Made by a program: the position numbers and the translations under genes. A DNA stretch of 63,978 nucleotides, the filler included, from Stramenopiles sp. TOSAG23-6 (taxonomy: Eukaryota), in the NCBI GenBank assembly GCA_900128565.1. It is 4 parts of 4 records of this genome, joined end to end, with 100 filler letters (N's around TTAATTAATTAA, not from the genome) between each part and the next. Parts side by side here need not be neighbours in the genome. Positions count along the whole stretch, not along the records: positions 1 to 17,174 come from LT636082.1; 3 more parts are not named here. One strand, given 5' to 3'. How positions within the stretch are numbered: position 1 is the stretch's first letter; every line of letters begins with the position of its first letter. The notes under the pieces were generated by a model that had not been told where the DNA came from, ran no database searches, and saw nothing but the letters and a program-made list of their open reading frames with translations. Shown here piece after piece: positions 1 through 34,483 of this stretch.

Positions 1-129
1 TGGTTTCATCATGAATTTTAAATTTTTTTTTTTTTTTTTTTTTTGAGTGTTTCTCTCTACTTTACTTCGTTTTCGTACTACATTATACATTGTACTGCTA
101 AAGCGTGTTTTCTGGTCTACACTTTGAAT

Positions 130-275
130 GTATTAATGTTTCATTATATAACATTGATACATCATTTTCAAATTGAAATGTTTTTCATAGTTTCATTTGT
201 GTTTTCATATACAATTGAATACGATTTATACCTAACAAAAAAAAACAATTTTTGAAATATTTTTTTATAGTATAT
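130..275 (+). other. Probable family intron (GT...AT; an AG at 270 is the alternative acceptor)
   Basis: aat|GTATT...TTTATACCTAAC...GAAATATTTTTTTATAGTATAT|gcg joins LVYTLN to AVREDY in frame. Confidence 0.4.
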
Positions 276-741
276 GCGGTTAGAGAAGATTATATGGTCA
301 ACTGGATTCCTGAAGCACTTGAAGTTCATCGATGTGCAGGTTGTGCAGGTTTGTTTTCATCATGATTTTTTGTTTATTTTTTACTATGAAAATTTTTTAC
401 TTACGATTTTTTTACACCAAAAAAAAAAACCTTTTCACAATACATCTGTAAAAGATGAATTTCGTGCTACATTGAATAGTCACACAAATGACATTTCAGG
501 TGTAAGTCGAGGGGCATCTGGAATTTGGTTACTTACCAAAGGTTATGAAGAGCAAAATAATAATTCTCGTAATAATTTAAATAGTGATAATATTGGGGTA
601 TCAAATAATGGTACGAAAACTTGGTATCAGTGGTTTTTTTCAAATATATCGAGTGATTCATTGAATGCGAATAATAAAGTAGCAATAAAAAGTTCAGTGT
701 TTAATGCAAAAGATCACAAAATAGAAATTAGAATAGAATAA
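276..741 (+). CDS. 3' part of an unknown intron-containing gene (exons about 276-348 and 446-741; possible upstream exon ending at 129)
   Basis: Splicing 349-445 gives AVREDYMVNWIPEALEVHRCAGCA-AVKDEFRATLNSH...IEIRIE*. The 5' part lies outside the window. Confidence 0.55.
349..445 (+). other. Family intron, GT...AT (an in-frame AG 9 nt downstream is also possible)
   Basis: GTTTGTTTTCATCATGA...CTTTTCACAATACAT; the 3' end matches other family members. Confidence 0.6.
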
Positions 742-946
742 ATAAATAAAAAGTTCAGTTTTTAATGCAAAAGATCACAAAATAGAAATTAGAATATAAA
801 TTATATAATAAATGAATTATGCAATCAAACATATTGATAACATTTGGTACACTTGTGCTAGATTAAATTTTTAGTTTTTCAAAACAAATTTATTCATTTT
901 CAAATTATATAATTAATTTTCATCTAAAATTGTCGCTGTTAAACTT

Positions 947-1810
947 TTATATATGGAATTTTGTATTGTGAATATTATTAATAGGAACACCAATCATTGC
1001 AAGTCGTTCGGAAGATCGCTCAAGTTCCTTCATACGATTCTTTTTAACATTCTCGACGATGCCCTTACATCTACAATGTGAGAAAATATTTTTTGTAGTA
1101 CAATTTCAAAAAAAATGTTAGGTACAAAATTTCGTACGAAAAAAAATTGAAATTCATGATTTAAAAATAAAAACGTACCGTTTCACGTGTTCTCTCAAAA
1201 GGACAGACGTGGACGCAGATTTCCTTTTACCCTTCAGACTTATAGTAAGCATTTCTTCTGCCTCGTTGGATATATTTTTTGATTTTATATTTAAAATGTT
1301 GTTTTTATTTTTATCTTCAATCTCTACATTATTTCGATTTCCTTTTGGTTTGTGTCTATTCGAGCGTCTTGTATTATCAACTTTGGGTATAGATGAAGTT
1401 TCTATGGATGTATTCCTTGGTTTTGGTAATAGTGGGGGTAATTGTATGTTTCCTTCAATGGTATTATCTTGGATTGAAACACTTTCTAACATTTTTGGTG
1501 GTGGAATAATTCTTTCTGGATCGTTTTGGACCCAAGCTCGGGCTAACTGATAAAGACTTGCATCTTCAGGTAAATTCTTTAAACTTATTCTTCTATCAAA
1601 ATAAGTAAAGATTGTAGGAGGACGTAATAGATTTTTAGAAGAACTTTTACCAGTCCCATTGTCATTTCCAGCTGTATCAGCTGCTATACAAACCCCAAAA
1701 GGAGACATCTTACCTACTGAAGACGGAGGTGGCTGGGATTGGTCCTCATTTCCTGTACGAGTGGGCGTTCCCAAAGGAACTGTTGGTTGCGGCGCTGAAG
1801 GTTCTTCCAT
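947..1810 (-). CDS. LIN37: LIN37-like DREAM/MuvB complex subunit (exons 1810-1179 and 1070-947)
   Basis: FDRRISL...ASLYQLARAWVQNDP and LPP motifs; spliced C-terminus LLREHVKRCKGIVENVKKNRMKELERSSERLAMI resembles LIN37. Confidence 0.75.
1071..1178 (-). other. Family intron with canonical GT-AG ends
   Basis: GTACGTTTT...TTTCGTACGAAATTTTGTACCTAAC...CTCACATTGTAG; removal restores the frame. Confidence 0.85.
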
Positions 1811-2302
1811 TAAAGTCGTATGCCCCGTTTACGCACAATAACAAAAACTCAAAAAAAACAATGCAATAAAGATGCCAACATTAATAAATGGAATATTCGT
1901 AAAAGCCTTAAAAAGTTGTATATGTGACTTTTTCGAATCTCCAAATCTCAAAAATCGAATCTAAATTTATGAAAATCATTTATAATCATCTTGAAATTTT
2001 TTAAATTTTTTTTTAATTTTTTATTTGTGTTTACAGTACGTACCAAAGAACCTAACCCTAACCCAATTAACCCAGTTGGTTTTGAACTAAATTATGAAGA
2101 AAAAAAAATGATGAAAAATTTCTCAACAAGTCTGAGTCATTGTCTATTCCGAATACATTCTGTATTTCAATAAATAAATGTTTTTTTACATTTTTTCTAT
2201 TTTTGTAGATTATTTGTAGATTATTACTAGTAATAAGATACTAAAAATAATACTAAAATACTGAAAATTTTTTATCATTTTCTTTTATTATTGAATATCA
2301 TA

Positions 2303-3037
2303 CTAATTTGTTTCACTATGAATGATCTCCATCTTCCAACATCCATAGAAAGCGTTTACACCAATAGAAGTACCACTTGATATTGTTACTGTTTCTAATG
2401 ATGTACAATGTTCGAAGGCACATTCACCAATACTAGTGACACTATTTGGTATTACTACTGTTTCTAGTGATTCACAATTTCTGAAGGCATATTCACCAAT
2501 ACAAGTGACACTATTTGGTATTATTATTGATTTTAGTGATGTACAATCATAGAAGGCATATTCACCAATACTAGTTACACTATTCGGTATTATTATTGAT
2601 TTTAGTGATATACATTTTTCAAAGGCAGAACAATCAATTTTAGTGACACTATTTGGTATTATTATTGATTTTAGTGATGTACAACGACCGAAGGCACCTG
2701 CACCAATTCTAGTGACACTATTTGGTATTATTATTGATTTTAGTGATGTACAATCTTCAAAGCCACAGTAACCAACACTCATAATTTTATGTTGTAAATA
2801 GTCTTCAATAACTCCCCATGGACCAATATTAAGTGCACCTCCAAATTGATAAAGACGCCACAAACTACTTGTTGTACTTTGGTGGTGACAACAGAGTAGT
2901 AAACAATGCATTTCTTGTTTACTGCGGTCAATGTTTGTCACTGTTTCCAACTCTTCCTTATATTCGGGATCAACTTTGATTACACCACTTTTTGAAATAA
3001 TAATACCATTATATGAAGATAGTATTGCATTAATCAT
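2303..3037 (-). CDS. BspA-type leucine-rich repeat protein (start uncertain)
   Basis: About six 23-aa repeats of the form CTSLKSIIIPNSVTxIGxxAF (69-bp tandem units). Confidence 0.85.
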   Translation of the reverse strand: MINAILSSYNGIIISKSGVIKVDPEYKEELETVTNIDRSKQEMHCLLLCCHHQSTTSSLWRLYQFGGALNIGPWGVIEDYLQHKIMSVGYCGFEDCTSLKSIIIPNSVTRIGAGAFGRCTSLKSIIIPNSVTKIDCSAFEKCISLKSIIIPNSVTSIGEYAFYDCTSLKSIIIPNSVTCIGEYAFRNCESLETVVIPNSVTSIGECAFEHCTSLETVTISSGTSIGVNAFYGCWKMEIIHSETN

Positions 3038-3372
3038 TTCTCTGAAAAACACTACCTTGTAATATATTATCTAGAAATAGCGAAGAACAGAACAAGGTTG
3101 ACTTGACGGAATGTCGTTTTGTGCAATAATAGTGTAGTGTCACAACAGCAAACGAAAAGGGATAGTAATAATACCACAGTTCGAATTTTTAATCGTAATC
3201 TCGAAAAATATCCTTAATTAATATCCCAAATCGGGCGTTTCTTATAATAAAAAATCCAATTTGCGAAATCAAATCAAATCAAAAAGACACGAAAAATGAA
3301 GTTACAGATTTTATATACAAAATATTATTAGTTTGTTCTCTCTCTGATAATCTCTCTCTGAGACTCTGTCTC

Positions 3373-4304
3373 TCAACACTCTCCGCAATCAACAATGAGA
3401 ACTTCATGTATTTTGGAAAAATATTTAAAAAAAAATTGTTAGGTACAAAATTTCGTATGAAAACCAAAAAAAAAAATAANTTNGAANTTCGAAATTGAAA
3501 ACGTACATGCTCTGTCCCTCCACTTCTACTTCCCACAGCTTCGATAGCTTTAACAACACTATACCCCTTGGTTACTTGACCAAATACCTGTGTTGATCAA
3601 AAATATATAAAATTGGACATTTGTTACGTACAAATTTTGGTACAAAAAAAAAAAAAAATTGAAAATTCCATAAAGAAAAAAAAAAAATCTTAGGTACAAA
3701 ATTTCGTATGAAAAAAATAAATTGAAAATTCCATAAAGAAAAAATACAGTATGTTTTCCATCAAGGTGCTGAGTCGCTTTTGTACATAAAAAAAATTGGC
3801 TTCCGTTTGTGTTCCTACCTGCATTTGCCATACTCAATATACCAGGACCAGTATGACGTAAATCAAAATTTTCATCATCAAACTTATTACCCTGTCGTGT
3901 AAAACATTTGTATGTAAAAATCAAATTTGTTAGGTACAAAACTTCATACGAAAAAAAAAATGAAATTCATGATGAAAACGTACATAGATACTTCGCCCAC
4001 CTGTCCCATTGCGATTCGTAAAATCACCACCTTGGCACATAAAATTAGGGATTACTCTATGAAAAGGCGACCCCTTGTAACCAAAACCCTTTTCACCGGT
4101 GCATAGAGCACGAAAATTTTCACTAGTCTTGGGGACAACATCAGGACGAAGTTCCATTTCAATCCGTCCGACGTCTTTCCCACCAATAGACATATCAAAA
4201 AATACTCTGGAAGAAGTCTTTGGTTCACCGAGTGGGAATGAATAACTTTCATCATCAGCAGGATTTGGAGTTGGTATTTCTCCTGAACTGAACACGCCCC
4301 CCAT
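3373..4304 (-). CDS. Cyclophilin peptidyl-prolyl isomerase, 192 aa, 4 exons (4304-3984, 3891-3748, 3587-3507, 3405-3373)
   Basis: [44 protein letters not shown] and C-terminal [20 protein letters not shown]-terminal MGGVFS fits a myristoylation motif. Confidence 0.95.
3406..3506 (-). other. Family intron with non-canonical GT-AT ends
   Basis: cat|GTACG...CCAAAATACAT|gaa gives the conserved V-x-I-x-D-C-G end; the next AG causes a frameshift. Confidence 0.85.
3588..3747 (-). other. Family intron (GT-AG) with an internally duplicated core
   Basis: Two copies of TCTTTATGGAATTTTCAATTT...TTTGTACSTAA; removal joins GKHT to VFGQV. Confidence 0.9.
3892..3983 (-). other. Family intron with GT-AG ends
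   Basis: tat|GTACG...TTTTGTACCTAAC...ACACGACAG|ggt joins GGRSIY to GNKFDDENF. Confidence 0.93.
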
Positions 4305-4563
4305 TTGTCTTTAAATTTCCTGGTGAAAACTTAGTGTGTAACAACAATGTGTTTTTTAGTCGAAGTCAACTTTTTTGGCCAAGTTTTTTGCGTGTCAATT
4401 TTTCGTTTTGTCAATTTGCAATTTATTAAATTTGAAATTTTGAATCGGTCAAAAAAGAAAAAAAAAAAATTTTTTTTTTGATGTTTCCAAAAATAATGTT
4501 TCAAAAGAGAGCAGCGTTTCCAAATATTTAGTAAAGCGATCGTTATTATTTAGTCTTCCATTC

Positions 4564-5277
4564 ATGCTTCTTGAAACTTTGGATTCTAATGGCACTTATA
4601 TCAAGGGATTATTTTTCTTTTATTTTTGGGTGAAGTATTATACGTCTATTCTCAGCCTTTTGAAGACGCTAGATTACGTTTGGCCTTTTCAACGCATTTC
4701 ACGTAATTGTGTTTCCGCAACTCACTGTATTGGTGTTGTTTTAATCATTAAATTATGGGGAAGGTCTGCTACGTATAATACCTTGGTACCATTTTCAGTG
4801 TCTTATTTTCTATGGGATATAGCATGTAGTTTTTATTGGGGTAAGAAACAACTTAAAAAGGATGTACCATATATTTGGCATCACTTTGTCGCCGTATGGA
4901 TGCTCGTCACTATGGCACGAGGTAGAAATATAAATGCCGGACTCTCGATATTATGGATTGGGGAACTATCAAATATACCTGGTTATATCGTATATCACTT
5001 AATACATACAAATTCGGACGGGTCGAATAATGACATAGTTAAACTATCTAGTCTCCTCCAATTGATAGTCTACGGATATTTTCGATGTTTTGTACTTACT
5101 AAAAATGTTCCCCTAATTTATGAAGAGGTAGAGGATGATATGCCTCTCGGTCCAGCTCTTGTAAGTGTTTGGCTAATGAGTCAAATATGGTTTATATTAC
5201 TTTTAAAGAAACAATTGGTGAAACAAAAGCCAACCCTTGATAATTCTACAGTAAACAAAACTCATAAAATTGAATAA
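4564..5277 (+). CDS. TLC (TRAM/LAG1/CLN8) domain membrane protein
   Basis: YFLWD, WHH, GELSNIP and YFR motifs with multiple hydrophobic segments. Confidence 0.75.
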   Translation: MLLETLDSNGTYIKGLFFFYFWVKYYTSILSLLKTLDYVWPFQRISRNCVSATHCIGVVLIIKLWGRSATYNTLVPFSVSYFLWDIACSFYWGKKQLKKDVPYIWHHFVAVWMLVTMARGRNINAGLSILWIGELSNIPGYIVYHLIHTNSDGSNNDIVKLSSLLQLIVYGYFRCFVLTKNVPLIYEEVEDDMPLGPALVSVWLMSQIWFILLLKKQLVKQKPTLDNSTVNKTHKIE

Positions 5278-5400
5278 AATAATTTTATAAAGTCGACATA
5301 ATATCATATTTCAAAAATAATTTCAACTAGAAAATAATGCGAAAATAATATAGCTATCGATACAATGTTATATTTTCATCTGCGATGTATCCTACTATAC

Positions 5401-8400
5401 CTATTTTTTCTTCTTTTTCTTCTTTGTTGTTTTACTCCTAAGATTTCCAGTGTTTGACATACCAACGCTGGATGACATTGTTGCGCTTGAGTCAACAGAC
5501 CTGTCTTCTGGGAGAGATGCAGACTCAGAATCGTCAGTTTGAGCTTGAGAGCCCAACGATCTGACTTGACTACCATCGCGTCTCTTCAGACCTAACCAAT
5601 CTAAATGTATGTCATGGTATTGAGCAGCACGTACAAGATTAGTAGAAAAGTTTGCAAATCCCCACTTCAATTGACCTAAAAGTTTGAAAAGGTTTCCAAA
5701 TTTTTCACCATTCGAAAATTCTACGTCTCCACGAATTTTAGATGACCGTTCATAGACTGGTTTTCCTTCATCAGCTTCAACAATTTTTATCACGGATTCT
5801 AGCAATGCGTTAAACTTAAACGTAATATCTCTATACTTATTCAGTACTGCCGATGGAAGTTCTTTACTCATTTCTTTGCCATCTTTTGATTGAGGATACG
5901 CCCAAGGATTTGGTTTGTAACGAGGGTCACTCTTGTCAGCTACAGAAATAACCAACTTACCATCAGGTGTTCTACGCATTACAGTACCATATTTCAAAAC
6001 AACATCACTTCGATACGCTGCAATAATTGCAAGATCCACATATGAAATTACTTTTATTACCATGGAAATGGAGGAAATTTCAAACTTACTTTGTATCAGT
6101 TGTTGAAGTCTATCTGTTTCTTCCGGGAACATAACAGTCATATCTTGGGTCATATCTATAGTCACAGTATCCGACTTTGTTTCTTTTGCGTTTTGTTGAA
6201 ATTCTAAGAAGGCGAGAACGACGTCTATTATCTCCTGAAGTTTGGCGTCAATTTCAGGTGTGAGACCATCTGGTAATAAAGGATTTGCTTTTAAATTCCT
6301 GTCACTCTGAATAATCTGAAGTATATTTTCTTTTTGATGTACATTTTTACTTCTTTGCAAAAGTTTTTTCGTAAAACGGTTATTTGATAAATTTGGATCA
6401 TGTGCCAATAAACTTGGAATATCTGGAGCGGTAATAGTAACTGTATTACCGTGAGACCTTGATATTTTAAATATATGGCCAATATTTAATTCCGAACCAT
6501 CATCAAATGACCGTAGGTGATTTATACCATAACTTGGATTTAATTCATTTAACTCTTCGTAAGATCTCCTCAATTGCTTTAGAACTTCAAAAGTATGTAA
6601 AAAATGCTTCATAAATGCCACGTCATTTGTCGAATATTGACCATTTCCGATTAAACTTAAATTATTCTTACCAATGCGAATTGTCGCAGTTTGTTTCTCG
6701 AAACCTCTCATTCCAACGACATATTCTAAAACAAAAGAAATATCTCCGTTTACATCACTTACACTGACCACTTCTGCAATGCGTTCATTGAACGAAGCAT
6801 AACCAGCTTTCAATTTCAAATTTGCATGTTTCACATCCATTCGTTTACCTTTGTGGACAACTTGATAACGTCCAGCAACTTCATCATATTTCACGATAGT
6901 TGCGGACTTTCCATTTAATCTTTTACCTTGGGTACTGCAGAGTCCTATAACAGTTACTTCGGTACCATTTTCATACACAAAATTCGCATTATATTCAAAG
7001 TCTGGTGAAAAGTTTTCAATTCGAAGAAATTGCCCAACCAAACGAGTGGCATCCTCTAAATTTGTTACTTCTACAGGTTTAGGAGGCCGACGAAAGTGTA
7101 AGTCGTCATCACTAAATCTTCCAACAATTGCATCGCCCCAAAATTCCCAATGTCGCTCGAATGTAGGTATACCCAAAAGTTCCTTCATAAACAATTCGTC
7201 TTCAATTACGTTACCCAACACTGAATTTGTCAAAGCGGCATCTGGATATAAATAAGCATCATCTAGATTAGCAGAAAAAAGAAAATCGTACATTATATCT
7301 CCTCTTCGATAAATTTCAGCAAACCAACCGCCAAACTTAAGACGAATCACCTGCATTAATTTTTCGCCTTCTTCTCGTGTACCTGCAATGGAATGCGCGT
7401 TTTCTCCAATTTCCAGAAGAAAGTAATAAAATCTCATGATTGAAATAGCAAATTCCTTTTTTTGCCTCTGAACGGTGAAATTGTGTGAAGTGTATAATAA
7501 TCCAATATCATAATGTTTCCATGTTTCAAATAGATAGAATTCAAAATCTGTGAGGAGCTCTTGCAACCAATTATCAGCAGCATTTGCATAAGCAATGCTT
7601 GGGCAATTATGTTTCAGAATAAAGATCAGTTCAATACTTTGGCGCCAAAACATTTCACGCTGATTCATGATATATTGGTATAGATCTTTATCTAAATGTT
7701 CGGCATATGAATCAACAAACAAGGACCAAATATTAACACCAAGTCCTTTTTCTCGAAGATACTCTTCTTTGAAATACTTGGGATGCGACATAGACAAATT
7801 TCTCGTTGCTTGAATAAGGATAATCCATAAATTTGACACTGAAACTTCACCCATGTCTTCCATATGTTCTGGTTCATGTGCTGGTTCGGCGACAAGGCTG
7901 GTAGCAATATCGTCTGACACTGACTCGAGGTGTACCAAAATTTTGTATGATTCCGATGGTACAAATTCCATTTGTTGGACCCATTGTTGATCATCCGTTT
8001 TTCCTGTCAAATCTGGTTCTGGTTCTGGTGTCACATGGTCAGCATTTTCAATAGTTTTTGTTAGTCCGATGAATTCTTCAAGATCAGCTTTCAAACGTTT
8101 CAGCATAATAAAGTAAATTTCAGAACCTTCCTCCCATACTCCAGGACTGATTGTTTTGATTTTCTTCCAACGTTGTAAGAGTTCTAAACTTATAGCTTTA
8201 GCCATAGCTTGTTTTTCTTCTTCTGTTGCTTCAGTTGCTTCTGCGTCAGTGACAACTTTATGTGCTGCTTCAGCAAATGTTGGGGAAACTTCCTCCTTTG
8301 CTAGTATTGTTGCTGTTGCTGTTGATGTTGCCACTCCACCATCAGAATGAGTAGAATAATCGTGCTTGCTTGTTACTTCTTTCAGATTTTCCTTTTTAAC

Positions 8401-9417
8401 AGACACCGATTTTTTTCTGTCTGGTATAACAACTTCGTACCGATCGCGCTTTTTCAAATATTTGCGGATTGTACCAGACTTACCGTTGAGTTCTTTAACC
8501 GCATCTGACTTAAGTCCAGTTATTTCTACAACTGTGCCTTCCTCAAGTATTTCAGCTTCCACGGCTTCATTTCGAAGATTTTCAGCCTCCATTTCTATTC
8601 GAAGTTGTTCAGCCTTCATGGATTCTTTTAGTTTTTCTTTTTGAAGTTTTTCAGCCTCCACGGCTTCTTTTCGAAGTTTTTCAACCTCCATGGCTTCTTC
8701 CCGAAGTTTTTCTTCGAATTTCTCCCTTCTTACTTTACGTTCCATCTCCTCATATATGTTTCGCCATTCTACCTCAGAGGTAACTTTCCGTTTCTTTCTT
8801 TTTGAACTTTGATCATTCTGCGGTTGTCGCATTTCCTGAGGTCCTTGTTGTAGCTGTTTCAGCTGTTTCAACTTATCAACCAGTTCAAATATTGCTTCAT
8901 TGAAACAACGATGCATTTCTCTCAGTTTATACGTCAAAATGTGATCAATTTTATGTTTTTGCCCATGCGGGAAATGATACGTAAAACCACCACCTGTGAA
9001 CTCCTGAATATGTCCTCCTTTATCGGAACTGGTGGCAACATAGAGATTAAAATGCGTTCCGTCGGGATGTGCTTTCAAATTGTTTACGAAGCCCATCGAA
9101 TTGAAGAACTTTATATTTTCTGGGTTTGATTTTCCTACAGAAATGAAGCTGTTGGAGGAAATCTTTTCATTCGTCGCTTTCAAATGCTTCTCCAGAACTA
9201 TCAACTCTTCCTGCTTCTTGAGTAATGCATTGATGATGGCTTGGGTGTCGGCGATGTTTTCTCCTGCATTTGCTTCGTGTGTTTTCCTTGAGTCTTTGGG
9301 TTGTTTACTTCTATATACCTTTGGTTTACCTCGGCTTCCCTTTTTCTTCATACCTTGAGTGTTTTTAATAGTAAATAAAACACATGACAAGAATAAGACT
9401 GAAATAAATCGCGCCAT
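5401..9417 (-). CDS. Large predicted secreted protein with two copies of a ~55-aa V-x-I/V-x-GL-x-S...LNGKS...RY-x-V...VK-x-x-NL module and a charged coiled coil
   Basis: Long ORF with first ATG at 9417 followed by hydrophobic signal-like MARFISVLFLSCVLFTIKNTQG; poly-Lys C-terminus. Confidence 0.75.
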   Translation of the reverse strand: MARFISVLFLSCVLFTIKNTQGMKKKGSRGKPKVYRSKQPKDSRKTHEANAGENIADTQAIINALLKKQEELIVLEKHLKATNEKISSNSFISVGKSNPENIKFFNSMGFVNNLKAHPDGTHFNLYVATSSDKGGHIQEFTGGGFTYHFPHGQKHKIDHILTYKLREMHRCFNEAIFELVDKLKQLKQLQQGPQEMRQPQNDQSSKRKKRKVTSEVEWRNIYEEMERKVRREKFEEKLREEAMEVEKLRKEAVEAEKLQKEKLKESMKAEQLRIEMEAENLRNEAVEAEILEEGTVVEITGLKSDAVKELNGKSGTIRKYLKKRDRYEVVIPDRKKSVSVKKENLKEVTSKHDYSTHSDGGVATSTATATILAKEEVSPTFAEAAHKVVTDAEATEATEEEKQAMAKAISLELLQRWKKIKTISPGVWEEGSEIYFIMLKRLKADLEEFIGLTKTIENADHVTPEPEPDLTGKTDDQQWVQQMEFVPSESYKILVHLESVSDDIATSLVAEPAHEPEHMEDMGEVSVSNLWIILIQATRNLSMSHPKYFKEEYLREKGLGVNIWSLFVDSYAEHLDKDLYQYIMNQREMFWRQSIELIFILKHNCPSIAYANAADNWLQELLTDFEFYLFETWKHYDIGLLYTSHNFTVQRQKKEFAISIMRFYYFLLEIGENAHSIAGTREEGEKLMQVIRLKFGGWFAEIYRRGDIMYDFLFSANLDDAYLYPDAALTNSVLGNVIEDELFMKELLGIPTFERHWEFWGDAIVGRFSDDDLHFRRPPKPVEVTNLEDATRLVGQFLRIENFSPDFEYNANFVYENGTEVTVIGLCSTQGKRLNGKSATIVKYDEVAGRYQVVHKGKRMDVKHANLKLKAGYASFNERIAEVVSVSDVNGDISFVLEYVVGMRGFEKQTATIRIGKNNLSLIGNGQYSTNDVAFMKHFLHTFEVLKQLRRSYEELNELNPSYGINHLRSFDDGSELNIGHIFKISRSHGNTVTITAPDIPSLLAHDPNLSNNRFTKKLLQRSKNVHQKENILQIIQSDRNLKANPLLPDGLTPEIDAKLQEIIDVVLAFLEFQQNAKETKSDTVTIDMTQDMTVMFPEETDRLQQLIQSKFEISSISMVIKVISYVDLAIIAAYRSDVVLKYGTVMRRTPDGKLVISVADKSDPRYKPNPWAYPQSKDGKEMSKELPSAVLNKYRDITFKFNALLESVIKIVEADEGKPVYERSSKIRGDVEFSNGEKFGNLFKLLGQLKWGFANFSTNLVRAAQYHDIHLDWLGLKRRDGSQVRSLGSQAQTDDSESASLPEDRSVDSSATMSSSVGMSNTGNLRSKTTKKKKKKK

Positions 9418-9687
9418 TTTGCTGTAGTAATAATACTGTAGCAAAATAGACTTACAAAGAGATTCAGTTAGTAAAGAGGGTCTCAGTTTATGATCCTCTT
9501 GAGTTCCTCCCGAACGGCTAACTGTTCCTGAATTGAACTGGCTCAATAAAATGGCAATAAATATATGTACAAACCTGTCGCTCTAACTTGAAAAAAAAAA
9601 ATGAACAAGTCGAACTGAATACTTTCTGTTTATTTATCATATCACACACAGCTGCTACTTACTGTAGTTAGTCGTAGAGACCTAACA

Positions 9688-10305
9688 ATGTCATCTTTCT
9701 TATCATTTATTGATGAGCTTGACTGCGAAGCCGAGCAGCTAACTCTTGGGAAAATTAGTCATGTTGAGTGTTCACCGATGCCAGCTGTGGCGCTAGCTAA
9801 AATAGAAGGTCAAAAGGTGACACAAGAAGAGATTGTTGCTGCGAGTAACAAACGTGCAGAGCAGCGTCAATTACTTCTCGAAATTTTTGATCAACATCTA
9901 CGAGTGTACGCAGACCATAATGAAGCTACGAGTGAAGTTCCTTCATCTGCTGACTACTTTAATGTTGCGCGTGAATGGTGTCGTGAACGTGATCTTTCTG
10001 TATTAGTTATTGATGGTTCTCCAAAGGAGAAATTGGAAAAGTTTTTCCAGCTTTTAGAAGACATGGGAATGGATGATGTTGAAGAACTAGCCGAAGATAG
10101 AGATACTTTAGAGTTGCTTTGTAGTTCATTAGATCGAATGAAGATGTATTCTTCTGTGCCGATGTCGGCATGGGATGCATCGAGGCCTTTGCATTTTGAC
10201 ATGGCAGACTGGGTAACATTTAAAAAGTTATTTAAGATTGGAATTGCCAAAAATGGTGACTTTTATGATAGTACAAATTATGACCAAAATCTTCCTGAAA
10301 ACTAA
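9688..10305 (+). CDS. Hypothetical protein
   Basis: 205-aa ATG-initiated ORF with globular composition. Confidence 0.65.
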   Translation: MSSFLSFIDELDCEAEQLTLGKISHVECSPMPAVALAKIEGQKVTQEEIVAASNKRAEQRQLLLEIFDQHLRVYADHNEATSEVPSSADYFNVAREWCRERDLSVLVIDGSPKEKLEKFFQLLEDMGMDDVEELAEDRDTLELLCSSLDRMKMYSSVPMSAWDASRPLHFDMADWVTFKKLFKIGIAKNGDFYDSTNYDQNLPEN

Positions 10306-10468
10306 CAGACCAGAAATTTCTAAATATAAATTACCATATAAGTCAAATGTACATTGCACACATATAATAATAAATGAATTATTTTACTTTCTATAGTTTT
10401 ATAGTTTTTAAAGTTTAGAGAATTTATATATATTCGAATTGTTTTAAAGATGACATTATTATATAAAT

Positions 10469-13400
10469 TTATATATATTCGAAATCTTTTAAAGATGACA
10501 TTATTATATAAAAAAACCAAAGGCCAATGAAGAAAATAGCAGTGATATTACGCCATTTTTTAGGCCCTCCGAGAACTGCGCCCAAATATTTTCTCCTTAG
10601 CATTAGAGTTCCTATACATAGAAGTGCACAAATTGTATATATTGAAACTGAAAAGGACAGATTACCTGCAGGAACAACGAAACCTCCTGTTTGATAAAAT
10701 CCTTGTTCTTTCAAACTTTCAATAACAGAGGCATCTAATTTATTAACATATGCATACCACGCATCAGTAGGCCCTTCACTTGACCAATACAATGCAGCTA
10801 TTAGCCATGGAAGACCAAGACCAAGAAAAACATTCACTGAATTAGACCCTGTTACGTTTCCTAAAGATGCATCAGCATCTGCATCCTGTATAGCTGCAGT
10901 CATGGAAGCAAAAGTATCTGGAAGTGATGTTCCAAGTGCAACAAAGGTAATAGCCGTGACGGCATCAGGCATTCCCACTACACATCCAAGCATTGAGGCA
11001 AGATCTCCAATCAATGCAGTCACTACTCCAATCATAATCAAACTAGACACGAATGCTGCCCATCCTTTGGCAAAATCAGTAGGAGGCAAAAATGCAAAAA
11101 GAATTTTCCAGGGCAATACAATAATATGCGTAATTTTATCACGGAGAGTGGCCTCTTCGTCTTCATCACCACCATTGACCAATAAAGCCTGTTTAAAACC
11201 ATCAATCCAATGTCCTGTTCCAAGTTGAATTCTGTCTTTATTTAGATGCATCATTGACATTATAGTATCCACAGTTTTCCTATTTTCCTCATCGGATATA
11301 ATGGTCACTGCACATGATTCCATCTCTACTCCACCCAGAGTAGTTTCTGCAAAACATGCATCATTCGTGGCATTTGACAACTCTACTCTAAATATCTCAT
11401 CTTTTTCATATGTATCATCATCAATTATATCAATTCTAATCGTTTTTTCCGTTTCGCCATCATCAAATACCAAAGTACCCTCAACGTGTGTGTAGTCTGA
11501 AGGTGCTATTGCCGTTTCATCAACTGTCTTATAGTCACATGTAACTCTTCCTGTACGACCTTCACGCCGTTTCACCACAATATCAATCATTTTCTGACTT
11601 TCACATACATGATAATGATTTTTTTCAAAAACGAAAACTCCCGGAAAGTCTACATTGATAATAGTAATCTCACATGATGCGATACCTAATTTGGTCGTTG
11701 TAGGAGTAGGGCTGTGTAATACCAATTGGAATGTTTCATCTAATTCATACTTTTGATCTTCAATTATTGTAATATCTATTTGCTTCTCACGTTCACCATC
11801 CATAAATGTCAATGAGCTATCAACAGGTGTAAAGTCTTCAATGCTTGTTGCTGTTCCTGCCACTGTCTTATAACCAATTGTTACAGAACCTTTACAAGTT
11901 CCATACCGAGCAACTTTAATACTTACAATTTTATCATCTTCAAAGACGGAAGTTTTTTTCTTTGTTAAAGTAATTAATTCTTCATCGTCAGAGAATTGCG
12001 ATTCTTCACGATCAACTTTACTTTCGCGTTTACTAGTACTACCAAACTTAAGAGCTCCATTTGCACCCTTCTCTGACATCAAACTCATATTTAATTTCCC
12101 AATTGTGCGACTTAAATGATTAGCAGTTATACCAATTTTGGCACCAGCTGTTAGACTTCGAGTTGCTTGGACTCGATAATATGCTCTTGATCGTTTTGTA
12201 CGTGAAAGTGCATTCATCGCTGCCTTGTGATGTAATTTGTCACTTTGGATAGTTGGATCTTCCTCTCGGATTTTCTTTAAAATTTCTGCCAGAACCCCTG
12301 GCTGTAATGTTTTGGCGAAATTTTCATTTGTACTCTCAATTTGTCTTGCTCGACCAAATTGAAATTTTCCAGGTATAACTTTTGACAGTTTATTTCCAAT
12401 GGGGGAACAATCAAATTTCCCTGTATCTTTGATGTAAGCAAACGTAACAAGCAATGGAAAAAATAATAGAGTCAACAATGCCTCAACATTTGTCACAATG
12501 TTGGGTGAAAATCCTTGCAATATTATAATGAGCCAGAGATACGCAAAAACAGAAAACATGGCGGTAATTCCAAATACGCCAATCTGTGATATTCGGCGCG
12601 TATCATCGCCAAGAGCAACTACACATAAACCGCTGATAACAAGCATATTGAATGCAGCTGAACCAACAATGGTTGAGGGCCCTAATTCACCCGAAGTCCA
12701 TTTCAAACCGTAGATTTCTAGCACAGAAAGCATTATCTCGGGTGCCGATGAACCTAGTGCCATTAATGTTAAGTTTGCAACAGTATCATTCCACATACGA
12801 ACGCGCACTTCTTCCCCATCGACTTGTACAAATTTGTACTCTGACGTTATTTCTTCAATCGATCCCATGAAAATATCAGACACAATTGCAACGCCAATAA
12901 AGAACCAGCCTAGGCCAATCATATAAATTACTATACGAAAACCTCTCGAACTTGAGTTTTCATCTTCACCAAAAATGGGTAAGAAATATCCCTTTTGACC
13001 TCCCGGATCACAGATTAATCTTTTGTATGAATGAACTGTATATGTTTTCTTATCTATATCTTGTCCCTCAACATATTCAAAAATATTGCAATGATCTTTA
13101 TCGTTTGTTAACGTGTTTGGACACGTATTTAAAGTGCATGTTTTAGTACCACAAGTCCCTTTCCGTTGTAAAGTACGCATGACAGGCTCCCTATTTTTTA
13201 GGACGTCAACGTAGCAACCATCAGTGATGGTATGTCCACCTTTGTCTGAATTATTTCCTGCAGGCCAAACGTAACCGCAACATTTTGGGTTTTTGTAGCA
13301 AGTGCTTTCTAAATTGGAACGGTCCGTGAAAACGCTTGCGTCAAATCCCCCCTGTGATGAAAGAATATTAAAAGTTTACATGGTTAGTTATATGAGATGG

Positions 13401-13668
13401 TTCACATATTGATTTAAAATATTTTCACTGTTATTCATTTGCATTGAGAACTTACTTTCCCTGTTTCAAAAGGCGAGGCTCTAAAGAGAGACGATTTAGT
13501 ACCATATGGCTCCTTGACCCAAAAGTTGTCGTTGCCAAGTTTGGTTAGTTTTCTGCCAAGGTATGTTGTTCTCCAATTGAAAGCATTATCTGACGCATTT
13601 ACCCAGTGCGTCAGAGAAAATGTAAAGAAGAAGAAATTCAGATATTTAAAATGTGAAATAGTTACCAT
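10469..13668 (-). CDS. NCX: Na+/Ca2+ exchanger (NCX/SLC8 type) with two Calx-beta domains; canonical intron at 13352-13455
   Basis: Alpha repeats ALGSSAPE and ALGTSLPD, GSAAFN, GSNSVN and Calx-beta motifs. A GTAAGT...ACTAAC...CAG intron links a signal-peptide exon in frame. Confidence 0.92.
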
Positions 13669-14049
13669 TCCAAATATCTGCACTTTTTGAAACTATTAAA
13701 ACGTGTGTTACGACGATGGGTCTACTGCCACAGAAAAATCTATAGAAATTTGCGAAAAAGTGTTTGTATTGGGTACAAACCAGTAGCGTTTCACTTTGAC
13801 TTGATGTCCTGTCAACTAAACTAAAAAAGATTTTTATTTTTGCGTTTTACAGTTTCAAAAAAAAAAACGGTCAAAATCGAGAGATGTGACGGATGATGGA
13901 ATTTTCCCTATTAGGCCTATATACGTAGTAGTATTAATATCTTTGTACGTGTCCAATAGTATATTTTTCCAGTACCCAGTCCTATATATGCTAGTATATG
14001 CATCAAAAGAAAGATGTCGTGATCATCTTTAATCAATTGCTACGTTTCA

Positions 14050-14403
14050 ATGGCAAATGTTGCTCAAGTAGATAGTATTTTGCAAGTTCCACTTGGTATT
14101 GCAGTGTGTACACTCTGTCTTGTCCTTCTAGTTCCAATATCACTTATTATAGTTTATTGTTTGTCTTGCATGTCAAGTCCTATATCTAGAGATATGTGGG
14201 ATCCAAATTGTGTGTTGCAACGTCGCAGGTACGCTGACAAAATAAAGAGACGGTCTATGGTACGAAAATATCAAGACGAGCAAGTTGAATTCGACTTACA
14301 GTGCGCAGTAAATAAAAAAATCAACGCATTTCAACTAAAGAAAGAATTAGAAGGTTTACAAAGAGACAAATATATTCAAGAAAAGCTATTTTATGAAAAT
14401 TAA
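14050..14403 (+). CDS. Small single-pass membrane protein of unknown function
   Basis: 117-aa ORF with an N-terminal hydrophobic helix and a charged tail. Confidence 0.55.
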   Translation: MANVAQVDSILQVPLGIAVCTLCLVLLVPISLIIVYCLSCMSSPISRDMWDPNCVLQRRRYADKIKRRSMVRKYQDEQVEFDLQCAVNKKINAFQLKKELEGLQRDKYIQEKLFYEN

Positions 14404-14459
14404 AAACAATTTAATAAATACATTTCAAAAACATTAAGACCTAGTATCTACTACAGATA

Positions 14460-16119
14460 TTAAATAATGTTAAATTTGAATGGATTGTTCAAATCTAAAT
14501 CACTCGATGTGACTGGAAATGGACATGCATCAGCTCCGGCTTCAGTTGCACAACACCCAAGACATGAGCAAATTTCCTTTGCATCAAATGATATTGTACT
14601 AGGGCTAATTGATTTAGTAAGTTCCAAACATAATTCTAATGGCGATTTAGATATGATTTCATCCTATATTTGTTTGGAATATAATAAAAAAAAATAATTT
14701 AGGAAATGAAATAATTTCAAAAATTTTTTTTTTTTTCTTTTTTTTTCAATATAATAAAACATACACCTTCTGGTGGTCTCAACATTGGTTGAAATGATTC
14801 TTCACGAGGTGTTAATCCATACAATGTGAGAATATATATACATATTTTTTTTTTTAGTAAAACAAAAATTTGTTAGGTACAAAAGTTTCTACGAAAAAAA
14901 AAACAAAAAAAAAATTGAAATTGTTAAACATATATATGCTTGATTGCATCCCATTTGAGTCGACTTTATTTTAAATTCGACGTTACCAGTCACTTGAGTT
15001 TGACAAATTCTACATTTTTCTGAGAGCAGTTCGCCATCATAAATTGTAAGAAAATATTTTCAAACATTTTACAATTTTTTATTAGGTACAAATTTTGGTA
15101 TAGAAAAAAATTTAGAAAAAAAATTGAAATTTGAAATTGAAAATACATTATGGTTAAAATCACAAAAAGGAATTGGAAACAATGGTTTTATACCATTTGT
15201 GTCATATTGACCCTCATCCACCCAATTTACTATAGTTTGGCTTTTTTTCATATCACAACAGCCGAGTGAATTTTTATCTGTACAAATTTTACCAATATAT
15301 TGTCGACAAAGTGCATGTATTTTGAAAAAAATATTTTTTTTTTTTTGGAAATTAGTCAAAAAAATTATTAGGTACAAAATTACGTACGAAAATATTTAAA
15401 AAAAAAATTGAAAAAAAAATAAAACGTACATGTTGATATTTTAATTCCAACATTTCGAGTAATCCACCACGAGATATCGATTGTTCCCAATTTGTGTTGA
15501 AAGTACAATTAAATGCCACTTGAGTACACATTGGATGACATATTAGATTTCCACATTCTGTTTCCATATCATCACTTCCCATGACTTGATTCCGAACAAA
15601 GAGAGATATATTGTGAAAAAATATTTTTTTTTGTAGAATTTGTTAGGTACAAAATTTCGTACGAAAAAAAAAATTGAAAAAAAATGAAAAAAAATGACAT
15701 GTACAGTCTCGGATGCTTGCAGTTTCATCACGTTGTTTGAAACTATCTACACACATATCCAATACTTTTTTGCATTTACCAGGTTTTTTTGCTTGAATTC
15801 CACCCATATATCCTTTGGTTATGTCTCTGAGAGATTCAAAGCGAAGTGGAACAGGTTTGTTCATAAGTTGTTTTGGTTCTATTTGTTTTTGAATTCTTGA
15901 CAAGACATCAAAATCTGTTGAAGTTGTCGAAATTCTTTGTTTGTTTTGTTGTATAGTCGGTGATTGTTCGTGATATGTAAATGGACTCATTGTCAGAAAA
16001 AGCTGCTTCATATTATTGAATGTAGGAAGTTTTCTGAATGATTTAACTAGAAAAATATGGAATGTAAGGAGTAATAATACGATTAGTATTACGCCCATCG
16101 ATCTTTGTCGTTGTTGCAT
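14460..16119 (-). CDS. Cys-rich predicted secreted protein, about 373 aa, 6 exons (16119-15705, 15605-15430, 15314-15147, 15038-14934, 14818-14765, 14663-14460)
   Basis: Signal-like N-terminus. Removing five family introns gives one continuous ORF with ICHPMC, LGCC, CRIC and ICSCLGCC motifs. Confidence 0.75.
14664..14764 (-). other. Degenerate family intron with GT-AG ends
   Basis: ggt|GTATGTTTT...TTCCTAAA...CAAATATAG|gat. Confidence 0.75.
14819..14933 (-). other. Family intron with apparent AT-AT ends
   Basis: tat|ATATGTTT...TTTTGTACCTAAC...CTCACATTGTAT|gga keeps the frame. Confidence 0.55.
15039..15146 (-). other. Family intron with GT-AT ends
   Basis: aat|GTATTTT...TTTGTACCTAAT...TTACAATTTAT|gat; the two nearest AGs lead to stop codons. 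Confidence 0.78.
15315..15429 (-). other. Family intron with GT-AT ends
   Basis: cat|GTACG...TTTTGTACCTAAT...CAAAATACAT|gca; the first three downstream AGs are out of frame. Confidence 0.82.
15606..15704 (-). other. Family intron, GT-AT (an in-frame AG 21 nt downstream is possible)
   Basis: act|GTACA...TTTCGTACGAAATTTTGTACCTAAC...CACAATATAT|ctc. Confidence 0.7.
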
Positions 16120-16537
16120 TGTTGTTGTATTTGTGTTGTATTCTTGTAATCTACGAGAAGTAAAAGTAAAAACAGCAAATGTTTCTTATAACAACGTATC
16201 AAAAAATACAAGAGTTCATCCACGGGAGCGGAATATGAAGAGAAAACTAATTACTCCACACGACGTACAATTTAATTTTTGATGATACTCTATATTATTA
16301 TTATGCTATATTTCAAAAAAAGTAACAATTTCGAAATTCAAAAAACTCAAATATGAAACGCCCAAAATTTCGTGTTTTTCTGCAAAAAACACGAAATACA
16401 CAAAACCAGTAACATTTCAATGTCAGCTGACCTCATGCAAAAAAACATGAATTGCTTGGGGATCTCCAAAAATTGAATGCGCACAACTCAAACTCAGGTC
16501 AACTTCAAATCTGTTTGAAAGAAAATCTTTTACTACA

Positions 16538-17174
16538 ATGAAGAAAATTTCTCTAATTATACTATCGATGTTCTTCATTATGTGTTACGTTGTGCCTATC
16601 AAAGCTGCTACAGGTGAAAAACGCCCACGCCAACAGTCAAATGAATCAAATGGAAGTTCATCGGAACCTCCGCAACAACGACAGAGGCTATCTCAAGTTG
16701 GTCAAGTGCAACCAATAGCAGATGTTTGGGTGGACGCAATCATTCAGCAGTTGCGTGTTGGTAAATGTGTTGAGGACATACCTAATTCTGTTCAACAATA
16801 TGCTCCAAATTTACGTATCGGAACATTACAATTATGCAACTACTATGTCAAACAACTGGTGCAAATTGTTAAGATTCCACAAAATGCAGAAGTTCTCAGA
16901 ACACATGATGAAATATTCGATGTATTGCAGGCATTTTTCAAATCTGGAAACGATGACATTATTCAAAATTCGCTTTTAATTCTTTTCAAACTAACAACAA
17001 ATTATGACGATAGTAGTGTTAAGCATATAAATCCAGAAGAAATAATTGAAATTTTGAAAGTTTCTTCGAACGTTTACACCGTAAAACACGCACTTTATGT
17101 ACTGGCAAATATTACAAAACAAAATCTCTCCAAGAGAACAAAAGTTGGAAATACACCAAATGCTATTTCTACCA
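16538..17174 (+). CDS. Signal-peptide protein with armadillo/importin-alpha-like repeats (3' truncated by contig end)
   Basis: MKKISLIILSMFFIMCYVVPIKA followed by KRPR, then ARM-like helices (IIQNSLLILFKLT, VKHALYVLANIT). Confidence 0.6.
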
Positions 17175-17274
17175 NNNNNNNNNNNNNNNNNNNNNNNNNN
17201 NNNNNNNNNNNNNNNNNNTTAATTAATTAANNNNNNNNNNNNNNNNNNNNNNNNNNNNNNNNNNNNNNNNNNNN
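17175..17274. other. Artificial contig linker
   Basis: N44-TTAATTAATTAA-N44 six-frame stop spacer. Confidence 0.97.
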
Positions 17275-26300: not shown

Positions 26301-26698
26301 TCTTTGATACAATTTACTTTATTGCCATTAATATCATTCTATTGAATATTATTTTTGGTATTATCATTGACACATTCGCAGCTTTGAGGGATGATCAGGC
26401 CGAGCTACGCGAGGATACAAATAATGTTTGTTTTATTTGTAATAAGCACAGAGATGAATTTGAACGGGAGGGTATTGAATTTGATGTACACGTTAAAGAA
26501 CAGCACAATATGTGGAATTATCTAAAATATGTCATTACCATCAACAATATGCCAGAAGATTGTTACAATGGACTTGAACAATATGTGCATGACTGCTTAG
26601 AATCAGATTGTATAGATTTTTTCCCTGTAAAAAAGAGCTTTGCTCTACAAATGGAAGATGATGAAAGTGAAGGCAATGAAGAAAGTTCTACAGAGTGA
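17340..26698 (+). CDS. ITPR: IP3 receptor/RyR-family Ca2+ release channel, 5' truncated, with an extra voltage-sensor-like module; intron at 18123-18209
   Basis: MIR (FRFRHLNT), RIH, RFLQLLCEGH, EAVQGPC, LNIIFGIIIDTFAALR and CFIC...H...HNMWNY motifs. Confidence 0.92.
18123..18209 (+). other. Family intron (GT-AT), 87 nt and in frame, so hidden inside the ORF
   Basis: cat|GTATGTTTT...AATTTCGAACCTAAC...AATATTTTTTCAAAATACAT|gt; reads through as an anomalous F-rich peptide. Confidence 0.8.
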
Positions 26699-28254: not shown

Positions 28255-28664
28255 ATTTAAAAAGAATATATTAGACCATTTATTAAGTTGATAAAGCTTG
28301 CATAGAGTGATAATTATTACTAATTACGAGAAGAAAAAATTTAAATTGACCTGTGTCAAATTTGTAACCGACGGTTGCCGACCACGAAATCAAATCAAAT
28401 GTCTTTTTAGGGCTTTGCTTACTTAGGGTTGGGGTTTGCTGGTATTTCGAAGAGAAGAGTGAGAAGAGTGACTTTTCTCGACCTTTTTCTCTCACAAAAT
28501 TACTTTGTGTTTATAAAAATAGTCTTGACTTGTCCAAGAGAATAGTATTCAGGTTCCTTAGAACATTCTTGATATAAATATATTCCTGAAGGCTTTGAAG
28601 TGATCATTTTGGAATAGTGGATCATTGTGTTCTTGCGTTAGGTTGAATCCCAGGTATTTCGGTA

Positions 28665-29997
28665 ATGAGTGCGATTGATTTATCGCAGACACAGGAGAAC
28701 GAGCTCCTTTACGTTGGATTCAACCAGGACTATGGTTGTTTTGCATGTGGTACTAGTACAGGATTTCGAATATATAACTGCAATCCGTTTAAGGAGACAT
28801 TTCGACGTGATTTTACAAGTGGCGGAATTGGCATTGTAGAAATGCTTTTTCGATGTAATATACTTGCACTTGTGGGTGGTGGTAAAGTTCCCCGATATCC
28901 CAAGAATAAAGTGATGATATGGGATGACCACCAAAACCGTCCTATAGGCGAACTTAGTTTCCGAAGCGAAGTCAAAGCTGTAAAGCTTCGACGAGATCGT
29001 GTCGTAGTTGTCCTTGAAAATAAGATTTACGTTTATAACTTTGCAGACCTGAAGTTGGTCGACCACATTGAAACTATTAAAAACACTCGAGGCTTAGTAG
29101 CTCTCTGTCCCAACTCTACCAATATGGTACTTGCATGCCCAGGTCTTATCCGCGGGCATGTACGTGTTGAACTTTACGATACTCGAAGGAGTACATTTAT
29201 TCCAGCACATGAAACCGATCTTGCTGCTATGGCTTTGAATCTCGCTGGTACTAGACTAGCGACTGCTTCAGAAAAGGGGACATTGATTCGTATTTTTGAT
29301 ACTCAAAGTGGTCAATTGCAGCAAGAGCTACGGCGTGGGGCCGACAAGGCTGATATATACAGTTTAAGTTTTGATGCATACTGTAAACATCTTGCATGTT
29401 CGAGTGACAAAGGTACTGTTCATATTTTTAAGTTGAATTGTAGTTCCGCGAGTGATGCTGTTGTTGTCAATGGAAGTGAAGCTAATGAAGTAGTAGCCGA
29501 TGGAAATGGAGAACATGTAGGAGGCACAGGTACCGGTACAGCTGCGGGCGAGACTGGTNGCCATGTACGTTTTCAAAATTGAATTTCAATTTTTTTCAAT
29601 AGAAAATTTTGTACCTAACAAAAAAAATCCAAAATATTTAAAATATTTTCATACAATACATCGAAGGGATGATGTTTCAACAAATAACGGACTGTCTGGA
29701 GCACGAGGAAATTCTCTTCGCTACGAGAAAAAAACATCGTCCAATCCAGTATCTGGTCTTCGGTTTATGAGAGGGCTATTACCAAAATATTTTAGTAGCG
29801 AATGGAGTTTTGCACAATTTAGAGTGCCACACGCTCGCACAATCTGTGCATTTGGTTCTGATGAAGGTACACTAGTGGCAGTTTCTGCTGATGGTACCTT
29901 CCGCAAAACAAGATTTTTGCAAGGTGGAAATTGTGAAAAAGTCGCATACAGTAAGTTTGTTNAAGTTGCTAAGGATGACGACGAGTGGATTTCTTGA
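28665..29997 (+). CDS. ATG18: PROPPIN ATG18/WIPI3-like autophagy protein (exons 28665-29564 and 29662-29997)
   Basis: [38 protein letters not shown] and [14 protein letters not shown] motifs. Confidence 0.93.
29565..29661 (+). other. Family intron with GT-AT ends
   Basis: cat|GTACG...AATTTTGTACCTAAC...ATACAATACAT|cga; the nearest AG gives CAT GGA TGA (stop). Confidence 0.82.
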
Positions 29998-34383: not shown

Positions 34384-34483
34384 NNNNNNNNNNNNNNNNN
34401 NNNNNNNNNNNNNNNNNNNNNNNNNNNTTAATTAATTAANNNNNNNNNNNNNNNNNNNNNNNNNNNNNNNNNNNNNNNNNNNN
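34384..34483. other. Artificial contig linker
   Basis: N-TTAATTAATTAA-N spacer. Confidence 0.97.

Follow-up and report, generated by a model that had tools for sequence, protein, structure and literature searches.

An introner-like intron with a probable GT...AT ending in a cyclophilin gene of Stramenopiles sp. TOSAG23-6

The DNA analyzed here, referred to as the window, is a stretch of 63,978 nucleotides (nt) from Stramenopiles sp. TOSAG23-6 (assembly GCA_900128565.1) that is composed of four parts of four records joined end to end, the first of which (LT636082.1) provides positions 1 to 17,174. The window is AT-rich (29-39% G+C) and contains many long open frames. Near its start lies a cyclophilin gene on the minus strand, the third intron of which is a member of a repeated intron family and appears to end with AT instead of AG. 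The parts of this gene are given below, with slashes marking the borders between exons and introns.

4304..3373, minus strand: cyclophilin gene with four exons
3984..4304, minus strand: exon 1, ATG at 4304, 107 codons, N-terminal MG... extension; PF00160 with E=7.2e-19, profile positions 2-61
3892..3983, minus strand: intron 1, 92 nt, family member, TAT/GTACGT...ACAG/G; nhmmer E=3e-11
3748..3891, minus strand: exon 2, 48 codons; PF00160 with E=2.8e-13, profile positions 75-122
3588..3747, minus strand: intron 2, 160 nt, GTATTT...ACAG, two partial tandem copies of the family; nhmmer E=2.7e-5 and 7.1e-5
3507..3587, minus strand: exon 3, 27 codons, 3' end ...GAGCAT; PF00160 positions 123-142 with E=0.012, alone below the cut-off
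3406..3506, minus strand: predicted intron 3, 101 nt, family member, CAT/GTACGT...ATACAT/GAAG; nhmmer E=2.2e-12, homology of the joined product, stop of an RNA contig from run X3
3438..3449, minus strand: family core in intron 3 with a branch-point-like CTAAC at 3442..3438, followed by a T-rich tract; motif search and family alignment
3373..3405, minus strand: exon 4, 10 codons and TGA; gapless alignment with 119 homologues through their last strand and D-C-G end
3402..3502, minus strand: alternative canonical intron, GTTTTC...GAAG, 101 nt, in frame; read from the sequence and used by the database protein P0121

The gene encodes a cyclophilin A/D-type peptidyl-prolyl isomerase (PF00160), and all four exons follow the profile at the expected spacing. 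Exon 1 (69 bits) and exon 2 (50.8 bits) each pass the PF00160 cut-off of 21.7 bits, and exon 3 ends at profile position 142, which leaves 17 profile positions for the remaining 7+10 residues. In comparison with other cyclophilins, the protein carries the N-terminal MG... extension, which is common to a mostly environmental set of homologues, and is otherwise ordinary. Among database proteins, P0121 alone is nearly identical to the product of this gene, of which it is a model. Apart from this entry, matches to exon 1 reached at most 76% identity at a query cover of at least 91%, and the protein search with exon 2 yielded 83% for the best full-cover match and 89% as the best identity with partial cover. 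Related loci on metagenome contigs numbered 80, all of them intronless relatives with at best 69% identity over the full query, and no allele devoid of intron 3 was present among them.

Six metatranscriptomes of seawater (polyA libraries; four studies) contained sequence words of the gene, with small shares of 0.04-0.18. RNA contigs from four runs (X1 to X4; three studies) were matched to positions 3488-17100 of the window, and contigs with 99-100% identity demonstrated expression of the cyclophilin gene in all four. An earlier note, made by a model from the sequence alone, had proposed the AT acceptor of intron 3 and had named an unexpressed gene copy as a finding that would speak against it; these contigs dispose of that possibility. 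The exon 1 region (3983-4318) is covered by contigs from X1, X2 and X4 with 0-1 differences. Splicing of intron 1 is documented by one X1 contig (side 49) with a joint 3890->3983 that skips 92 letters and reads CT..AC on the plus strand, and splicing of intron 2 by one X3 contig with a joint 3581->3742 that skips 160 letters and reads CT..AC when the cut is moved by +6. Accordingly, the two introns that the earlier note had assigned to the same family with AG acceptors are indeed family members ending with AG, each documented by a single contig. Inside intron 2, Tandem Repeats Finder detected a period of 63 present 1.9 times (3624-3744, minus strand), in which a part of the family element is duplicated; therefore the family also expands inside existing introns.

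With respect to intron 3, all coordinates and letters quoted in the earlier note are correct, and removal of 3406-3506 produces the C-terminus that was proposed, with the last 24 residues running gapless against the homologues. The alignment comprised the spliced model and 119 single-domain homologues of 150-230 residues obtained by protein searches, with P0121 excluded. Two features of the junction had been missed. The letters CATG occur at both borders, and the cut can be placed at five positions that give the same mRNA (both ends can be shifted upstream by 1-3 nt or downstream by 1 nt); the resulting termini are GT...AT, AT...AC and three others. Moreover, a second GT at +4 together with an AG at +4 defines a canonical GT-AG intron that is also 101 nt long and in frame. 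The former statement that the next AG shifts the frame thus applies when the donor is kept at CAT/GT, whereas the frame stays open when the donor is also moved by +4. Since the canonical alternative is in frame, subtler evidence than the earlier note assumed has to decide between the two.

One part of this evidence concerns two residues, as the AT acceptor yields H-E-V-L-I-V with E-V at the junction, whereas the canonical +4/+4 intron yields H-V-L-L-I-V with V-L. At alignment column 183, 57 of the 110 homologues have K, 21 have P and 5 have E, and none has V. Column 184 is occupied by V in 80 of 109 homologues, by I in 28 and by L in one. Thus the alignment with orthologues that had been suggested as a check places V, in the reading with the AT acceptor, where most homologues have V, whereas the canonical intron introduces L at a column with a single L and V at a column with none. 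With 3506..3406 removed, G190 agrees with 104 of 104 homologues and C189 with 82 of 108. The closest full-length relatives, which share the N-terminal extension, end with ...HEVII.. (P0098) and ...QEVLV.. (P0118) at identical spacing. With a profile derived from these homologues, the protein with the AT acceptor scored 314.1 bits, the canonical version 311.1 bits and the frameshifted version 302.8 bits; these values argue clearly against the frameshift and only modestly against the canonical intron.

The canonical intron, with the donor at the second GT (GTAC/GTTTTC, from 3502) and the acceptor GAAG/TTC (to 3402), gives a protein of the same length and is the version contained in P0121. It follows directly from the sequence without loss of frame, and GT-AG is the rule almost everywhere. 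P0121 is an unreliable witness for this junction, since it lacks 17 residues of exon 1 (4029-4079, minus strand) that were predicted as a GT-AG intron of 51 nt and that contigs from X1 and X4 cross unbroken. Gene prediction pipelines that favour GT-AG would probably select the version found in P0121 at the cost of two mismatches.

Evidence from RNA close to the junction comes from an X3 contig (record 15; 231 nt, depth 3.2) that lacks intron 2. Its match to 3506..3581 shows 0 differences, and the 28 letters that follow disagree with 3488-3505; therefore intron 3 is not retained in this transcript. The match to exon 3 is predicted to end at 3506 for the AT acceptor, which is the position observed, at 3503 for the canonical donor and at 3507 for the frameshift junction. 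Although positions 3505-3503 would also have fitted a transcript of the canonical intron, the match ends before them. The stop at 3506 in this single contig of low depth is a pointer to, not a proof of, the junction CAT/GAAG. Additionally, the first GT of GTAYGT serves as donor in both RNA-confirmed introns that contain this motif, namely intron 1 and intron 14764..14664 of a gene further along the window, which speaks against a donor at the second GT. The X1 contig that bridges intron 14764..14664 also covers 14764..14818, and its match ends precisely at the AT acceptor predicted for the neighbouring intron 14933..14819, which contains no AG between its branch-like core and its AT end.

The behaviour of the whole family provides a further line of evidence. 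A search of the window by nhmmer with a profile of ten copies resulted in 14 matches at E<=7.1e-5, distributed over at least 7 genes. Whereas shuffles lead to an expectation of 1.9 occurrences of the family core motif, the window contains 20; the 5' motif GTACGTTTTC alone is not enriched there (8 matches, 4.07 expected). The family consensus consists of GTAYGTTTT, a T-rich stretch, ...TTTTCGTACGAAATTTTGTACCTAAC, a second T-rich stretch and ...TTTTYCA(A/C)AATAYAT, and the distance from the CTAAC core to the 3' end varies between 26 and 47 nt. At the homologous last position, nine of the 13 tabulated introns end with AT and four with AG; in two of the latter G replaces the final T, and the other two use an AG farther downstream. 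With an additional copy at a contig start that ends with CAT, AT is found in 10 of the 14 copies with a visible 3' end. The upstream exon ends with AT in eight of the nine AT-ending copies compared with one of the four AG-ending ones. Among the nine AT-ending copies, CAT or TAT precedes the donor in seven and AAT in one, and CAT or TAT forms the last three bases in every case; intron 3 itself has CAT both before the donor and at its end. The first AG beyond the AT end breaks the frame in five of the eight AT-ending introns with a known downstream exon, which is the chance level if that AG is not the site used.

The other genes and elements of the window that are relevant in this context are as follows.

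14460-16119, minus strand: gene of a Cys-rich, probably secreted protein, 375 codons, five introns
15698..15606, 15429..15315, 15146..15039 and 14933..14819, minus strand: predicted AT-ending introns of this gene
28647-29994, plus strand: PROPPIN/WIPI-like gene with the family intron 29565..29661 (CAT/GT...ACAT/)
17340-26698, plus strand: giant open frame that encodes MIR and RIH domains, IP3/ryanodine receptor-like
1071-1828, minus strand: LIN37-like gene, family intron 1178..1071 ending with AG
10469-13375, minus strand: sodium/calcium exchanger with two Calx-beta domains
17175-17274, 34384-34483 and 51493-51592: three spacers of 44 N, TTAATTAATTAA and 44 N at the joins between the parts

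In the PROPPIN/WIPI-like gene, removal of intron 29565..29661 joins in frame an N-terminal PROPPIN part (PF21032, E=1.5e-36) and a C-terminal WIPI4-like part (PDB 8kbx, E=1e-10), and the frame is thus set by homology at either side. The alternative GT of this intron lies at +4 and the next AG at +5, and the frame is lost by their use; the canonical shift that is available in cyclophilin intron 3 therefore fails in this member of the family. The gene of the Cys-rich protein gives 375 open codons when its four AT-ending introns and the RNA-confirmed GT-AG intron 14764..14664 are removed. One of the AT-ending introns begins with ATATGT and not with GT, and no Pfam family was assigned to the five of the gene's six exons that were scanned (all but the 18-codon exon 5). 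Intron 349..445 follows an exon ending with CAG, and its flanks differ, so that its termini can be read solely as GT...AT; it begins with GTTTG, and the gene in which it lies showed no homology support. This putative family-like intron makes a donor of the GTT type, as required by the canonical version of cyclophilin intron 3, thinkable. The giant open frame contains a family copy of 87 nt at 18123-18209 (CAT/GT...ACAT/) that is free of stops and a multiple of three in length, and the frame is accordingly compatible with its splicing as well as with its retention. The LIN37 and Calx-beta exchanger families are best known from animals, and together with the Fritillaria-like YAY triplets described below they suggested an appendicularian origin; this was rejected on account of the source name of P0121, which begins with GSMAST32 and points to a marine stramenopile (MAST) assembly. 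A gene of the BspA-type leucine-rich-repeat class (PF13306, E=5e-68) was also noted at 2303-3070 on the minus strand, with a 69-nt tandem repeat present 5.8 times at 2377-2779.

The three spacers separate contigs of about 17 kb. Each of them adjoins a copy of the intron family, and such repeats therefore seem to be places where the assembly breaks off. Further runs of 43 and 61 N are present at 36879-36921 and 37277-37337; they do not contain TTAATTAATTAA and are probably ordinary scaffold gaps.

In agreement with the proposal of the earlier note, the AT acceptor emerges as the best reading of intron 3: homology, the position at which the X3 contig stops matching, the choice of donor in two sister introns confirmed by RNA and the pattern seen across the family all favour it. 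We assign a probability of about 0.7 to the interpretation that intron 3 is a U2-type intron of an introner-like family that is spliced GT...AT, and a junction CAT^GAA in the mRNA, whatever the termini of the intron, is somewhat more probable still. The donor GTACGT at 3506 resembles GTRNGT and corresponds to the motif confirmed by RNA in intron 1 and in intron 14764..14664. AT is final under the best-supported junction, and no AG occurs between CTAAC and 3406. The A of CTAAC, which by its resemblance to a branch point is the presumed branch adenosine, is located 33 nt before the last base of intron 3. As AT and AG ends coexist in one family, the splicing machinery seems to accept YAT besides YAG. 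The ordinary signals of the major spliceosome, the lack of likeness to U12-type introns and, in the five of 14 copies that were folded, the lack of a hairpin joining the ends lead us to read the copies, intron 3 among them, as U2-type with a YAT 3' site.

Several observations weigh against this interpretation. The AT acceptor leads the canonical intron by only 3.0 bits in the profile score, and P0121, the sole public model of the gene, uses the canonical version. The searches of proteins and metagenome contigs revealed no transcript-derived protein of the organism and no close genomic relative. Among the contigs matched to 3488-17100, no read or contig visibly spans the junction 3507/3405; the X3 contig is one record from one run, and its 28 letters beyond the junction fall short of the 31 letters demanded by the bridging rule. 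None of the six splice joints listed belongs to an AT-ending intron, as three represent GT-AG introns of this organism and the other three are uncertain ('between: not known'). The X1 contig has 42 unplaced letters at 14818, and its stop at 14818 rather than 14821 misfits the donor drawn for intron 14933..14819, the first base of which is A. Finally, frame preservation at the four AT-ending introns of gene 16119..14460 and at intron 349..445 is judged from open frames, with no homology to confirm it.

Weighing the small difference in score, the public model and the thinkable GTT donor against the two poorly matching residues, the early stop of the X3 contig, the use of the first GT in both sister introns, the weakness of P0121 and the failure of the +4/+4 shift in intron 29565..29661, we consider it unlikely that intron 3 is the canonical intron 3502..3402.

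A second alternative leaves the mRNA unchanged and moves both cuts 2 nt upstream, which turns intron 3 into an AT...AC intron (GAGC/ATGTAC...ATAC/ATGAAG) of the U12-type or of a rare U2-type. The shared CATG makes this version indistinguishable in the mRNA, and six of the seven copies that end with ...ACAT follow an exon ending with AT and can be read as AT-AC in the same way. The U12 machinery is known to process introns with AT-AC as well as GT-AT termini (PMC1557818). In three other copies, however, the same shift leads to AT-AT, AT-TT and AT-GT, and at 349..445 it is impossible because the exon ends with CAG, so that GT...AT alone provides one rule for all copies. The U12 5' splice site has the consensus RTATCCTT, and the U12 branch site TCCTTAAC is placed about 10-20 nt from the 3' end. 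Intron 3 begins with GTACGTTTTC, or with ATGTACGT after the shift by 2 nt, and neither this start nor the family donor GTAYGTTTT fits the U12 donor. Likewise, the core TACCTAAC, which is located 33 nt from the end of intron 3 and 26-47 nt from the end in the family, misfits the placement of the U12 branch site. An Rfam search had no match in the window, and no U11, U12 or U6atac gene was detected in its limited length of 64 kb. An AT...AC intron is thus quite improbable at this locus.

It would also be conceivable that splicing connects the family donor with the first AG, at +4 (GAAG/), with a frameshift and a nonsense tail of 40 residues, as in a decaying or mis-spliced copy. This AG is indeed the first one downstream of CTAAC, and scanning from the branch point for the first AG is the textbook rule. 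The resulting protein loses the last strand and the D-C-G end and scores 11.3 bits lower than the product of the AT acceptor, position 3506 is part of the difference-free match of the X3 contig where the frameshift junction predicts otherwise, and the C-terminal codons are perfectly preserved in frame within a gene that is expressed in all four runs at 99-100% identity and is otherwise intact. We regard this as very improbable. Least probable of all is an assembly or base-call error that hides an ordinary intron with G as its last base (ACAG), since such a one-off event, despite three N within intron 3 (3480, 3483 and 3487) that lie 74-81 nt away, the stitching of the window from short contigs and the two family copies that do have G at the homologous position, cannot explain the T found there in ten independent copies from at least 6 genes, and the N are isolated with none closer than 70 nt to either splice site.

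Each copy of the family carries its own donor GTAYGT, a branch-like CTAAC core, a T-rich tract and the 3' end ...CA(A/C)AATAYAT. Under the favoured GT...AT reading, the 3' cut of intron 3 would be made after AT, and the mRNA would join ...GAGCAT to GAAGTT.... The same rule, GT...AT usually following an exon that ends with AT, fits most copies of the window, and in a minority G takes the place of the final T or an AG farther on is used. Spliceosome structures show the A at position -2 of the intron paired with the branch adenosine and the last G paired with G+1. Replacement of the last G by U would be expected to weaken one of these contacts, not both.

The flanking AT repeats would be consistent with a target duplication of 2-3 nt, and removal of the element together with one copy of the repeat would restore the old frame, as expected for a transposon-like origin with AT as target-site duplication. 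The AT before the donor could equally be a splicing requirement. The inverted termini comprise only about 4 nt (GTAT/ATAC), with no convincing terminal inverted repeat; no transposase and no empty site for comparison were found. Folding of five of the 14 copies gave minimum free energies of -8 to -12.4 kcal/mol (z -0.43 to -2.48) and no common end-to-end helix. On balance we lean slightly towards the broader view that this uncultured marine lineage of stramenopiles regularly removes the members of a proliferating introner family as GT...AT introns, that 3' splice-site recognition by its major spliceosome relaxed from YAG to YAK in an event separate from that in the larvacean Fritillaria, and that the AT is an insertion footprint, with the frame present before insertion regained exactly on splicing. 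If this holds, the public gene models of the lineage are systematically wrong at such introns.

The final AG of introns is among the most constant signals of eukaryotic genes, and the lineages that break this rule at scale are few: Fritillaria, Amoebophrya and euglenozoans, each of which reveals a freedom of the spliceosome. In the main text of the paper on uncultured stramenopile single-cell genomes, the word 'intron' appears twice and 'splice' and 'canonical' do not appear (PMC5778133), and no description of AT acceptors in stramenopiles was found in the literature searched, with supplementary files outside this search. Should the rule of the family apply genome-wide, it would represent a non-canonical splicing variant in a lineage new for it. 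A protist family of young introns that closely resemble one another and have either T or G as their last base would constitute a natural experiment on the choice of 3' splice sites, and such a family would also inform how transposon-like elements become introns. Gene finders restricted to canonical sites mis-model these genes, as exemplified by P0121.

The rare GT-AT introns of animals, which include the U2-type intron of DGCR2 and U12-type introns of a few genes, have the same termini as the introns described here, with a good U2-type donor and a pyrimidine tract (PMC1557818). They are lone exceptions among hundreds of thousands of introns (PMC1557818), whereas the stramenopile window contains a whole family that follows this rule. 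The marine protist Amoebophrya resembles the present case in its repeated non-GT-AG introns, the direct repeats of which (3-5 nt) overlap the borders between exon and intron; a large share of its introns is non-GT-AG, and standard gene finders fail on them (PMC7789003). The Amoebophrya introns have no preferred terminal dinucleotides and form hairpins from inverted repeats of 8-20 nt (PMC7789003), in contrast to the family analyzed here, which is uniformly GT...AT with weak folds in the five of 14 copies that were folded. A stable pairing of the ends as in Euglena and Amoebophrya was absent from these five copies, to which intron 3 does not belong.

Similar copies in unrelated genes with their own splice signals are also characteristic of the introners of Micromonas, Aureococcus and dinoflagellates (PMC12130899, PMC7789003). 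As in these systems, most copies in the window are bordered by a short direct repeat, here AT, and contigs break at the copies, as is usual for repeats. The introners described so far use canonical sites, unlike the family of the window, and families with unfamiliar splice sites were dropped from the large introner survey unless they were backed by RNA (PMC12130899).

The nearest parallel appears to be the 3'AT and 3'AC introns of Fritillaria, where 3'AT introns make up 44% of the introns in F. pellucida and 34% in F. borealis (PMC13326754). There, a YAY triplet forms the last three bases of the intron and is often also present before the 5' site (PMC13326754). These non-canonical introns are removed by the major spliceosome with the help of divergent U2AF paralogues, and both a duplication of U2AF and changes in the N6-methyladenosine (m6A) of small nuclear RNAs have been described (PMC13326754). 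The stramenopile family shares with the two larvaceans the AT ends, the YAY triplets at both borders, the T-rich tract and the coexistence of AG and AT introns. It differs from them in its 5' end, which is an ordinary GT (GTAYGT) where the main Fritillaria classes have AG, and in its host, which is a stramenopile protist and not a chordate.

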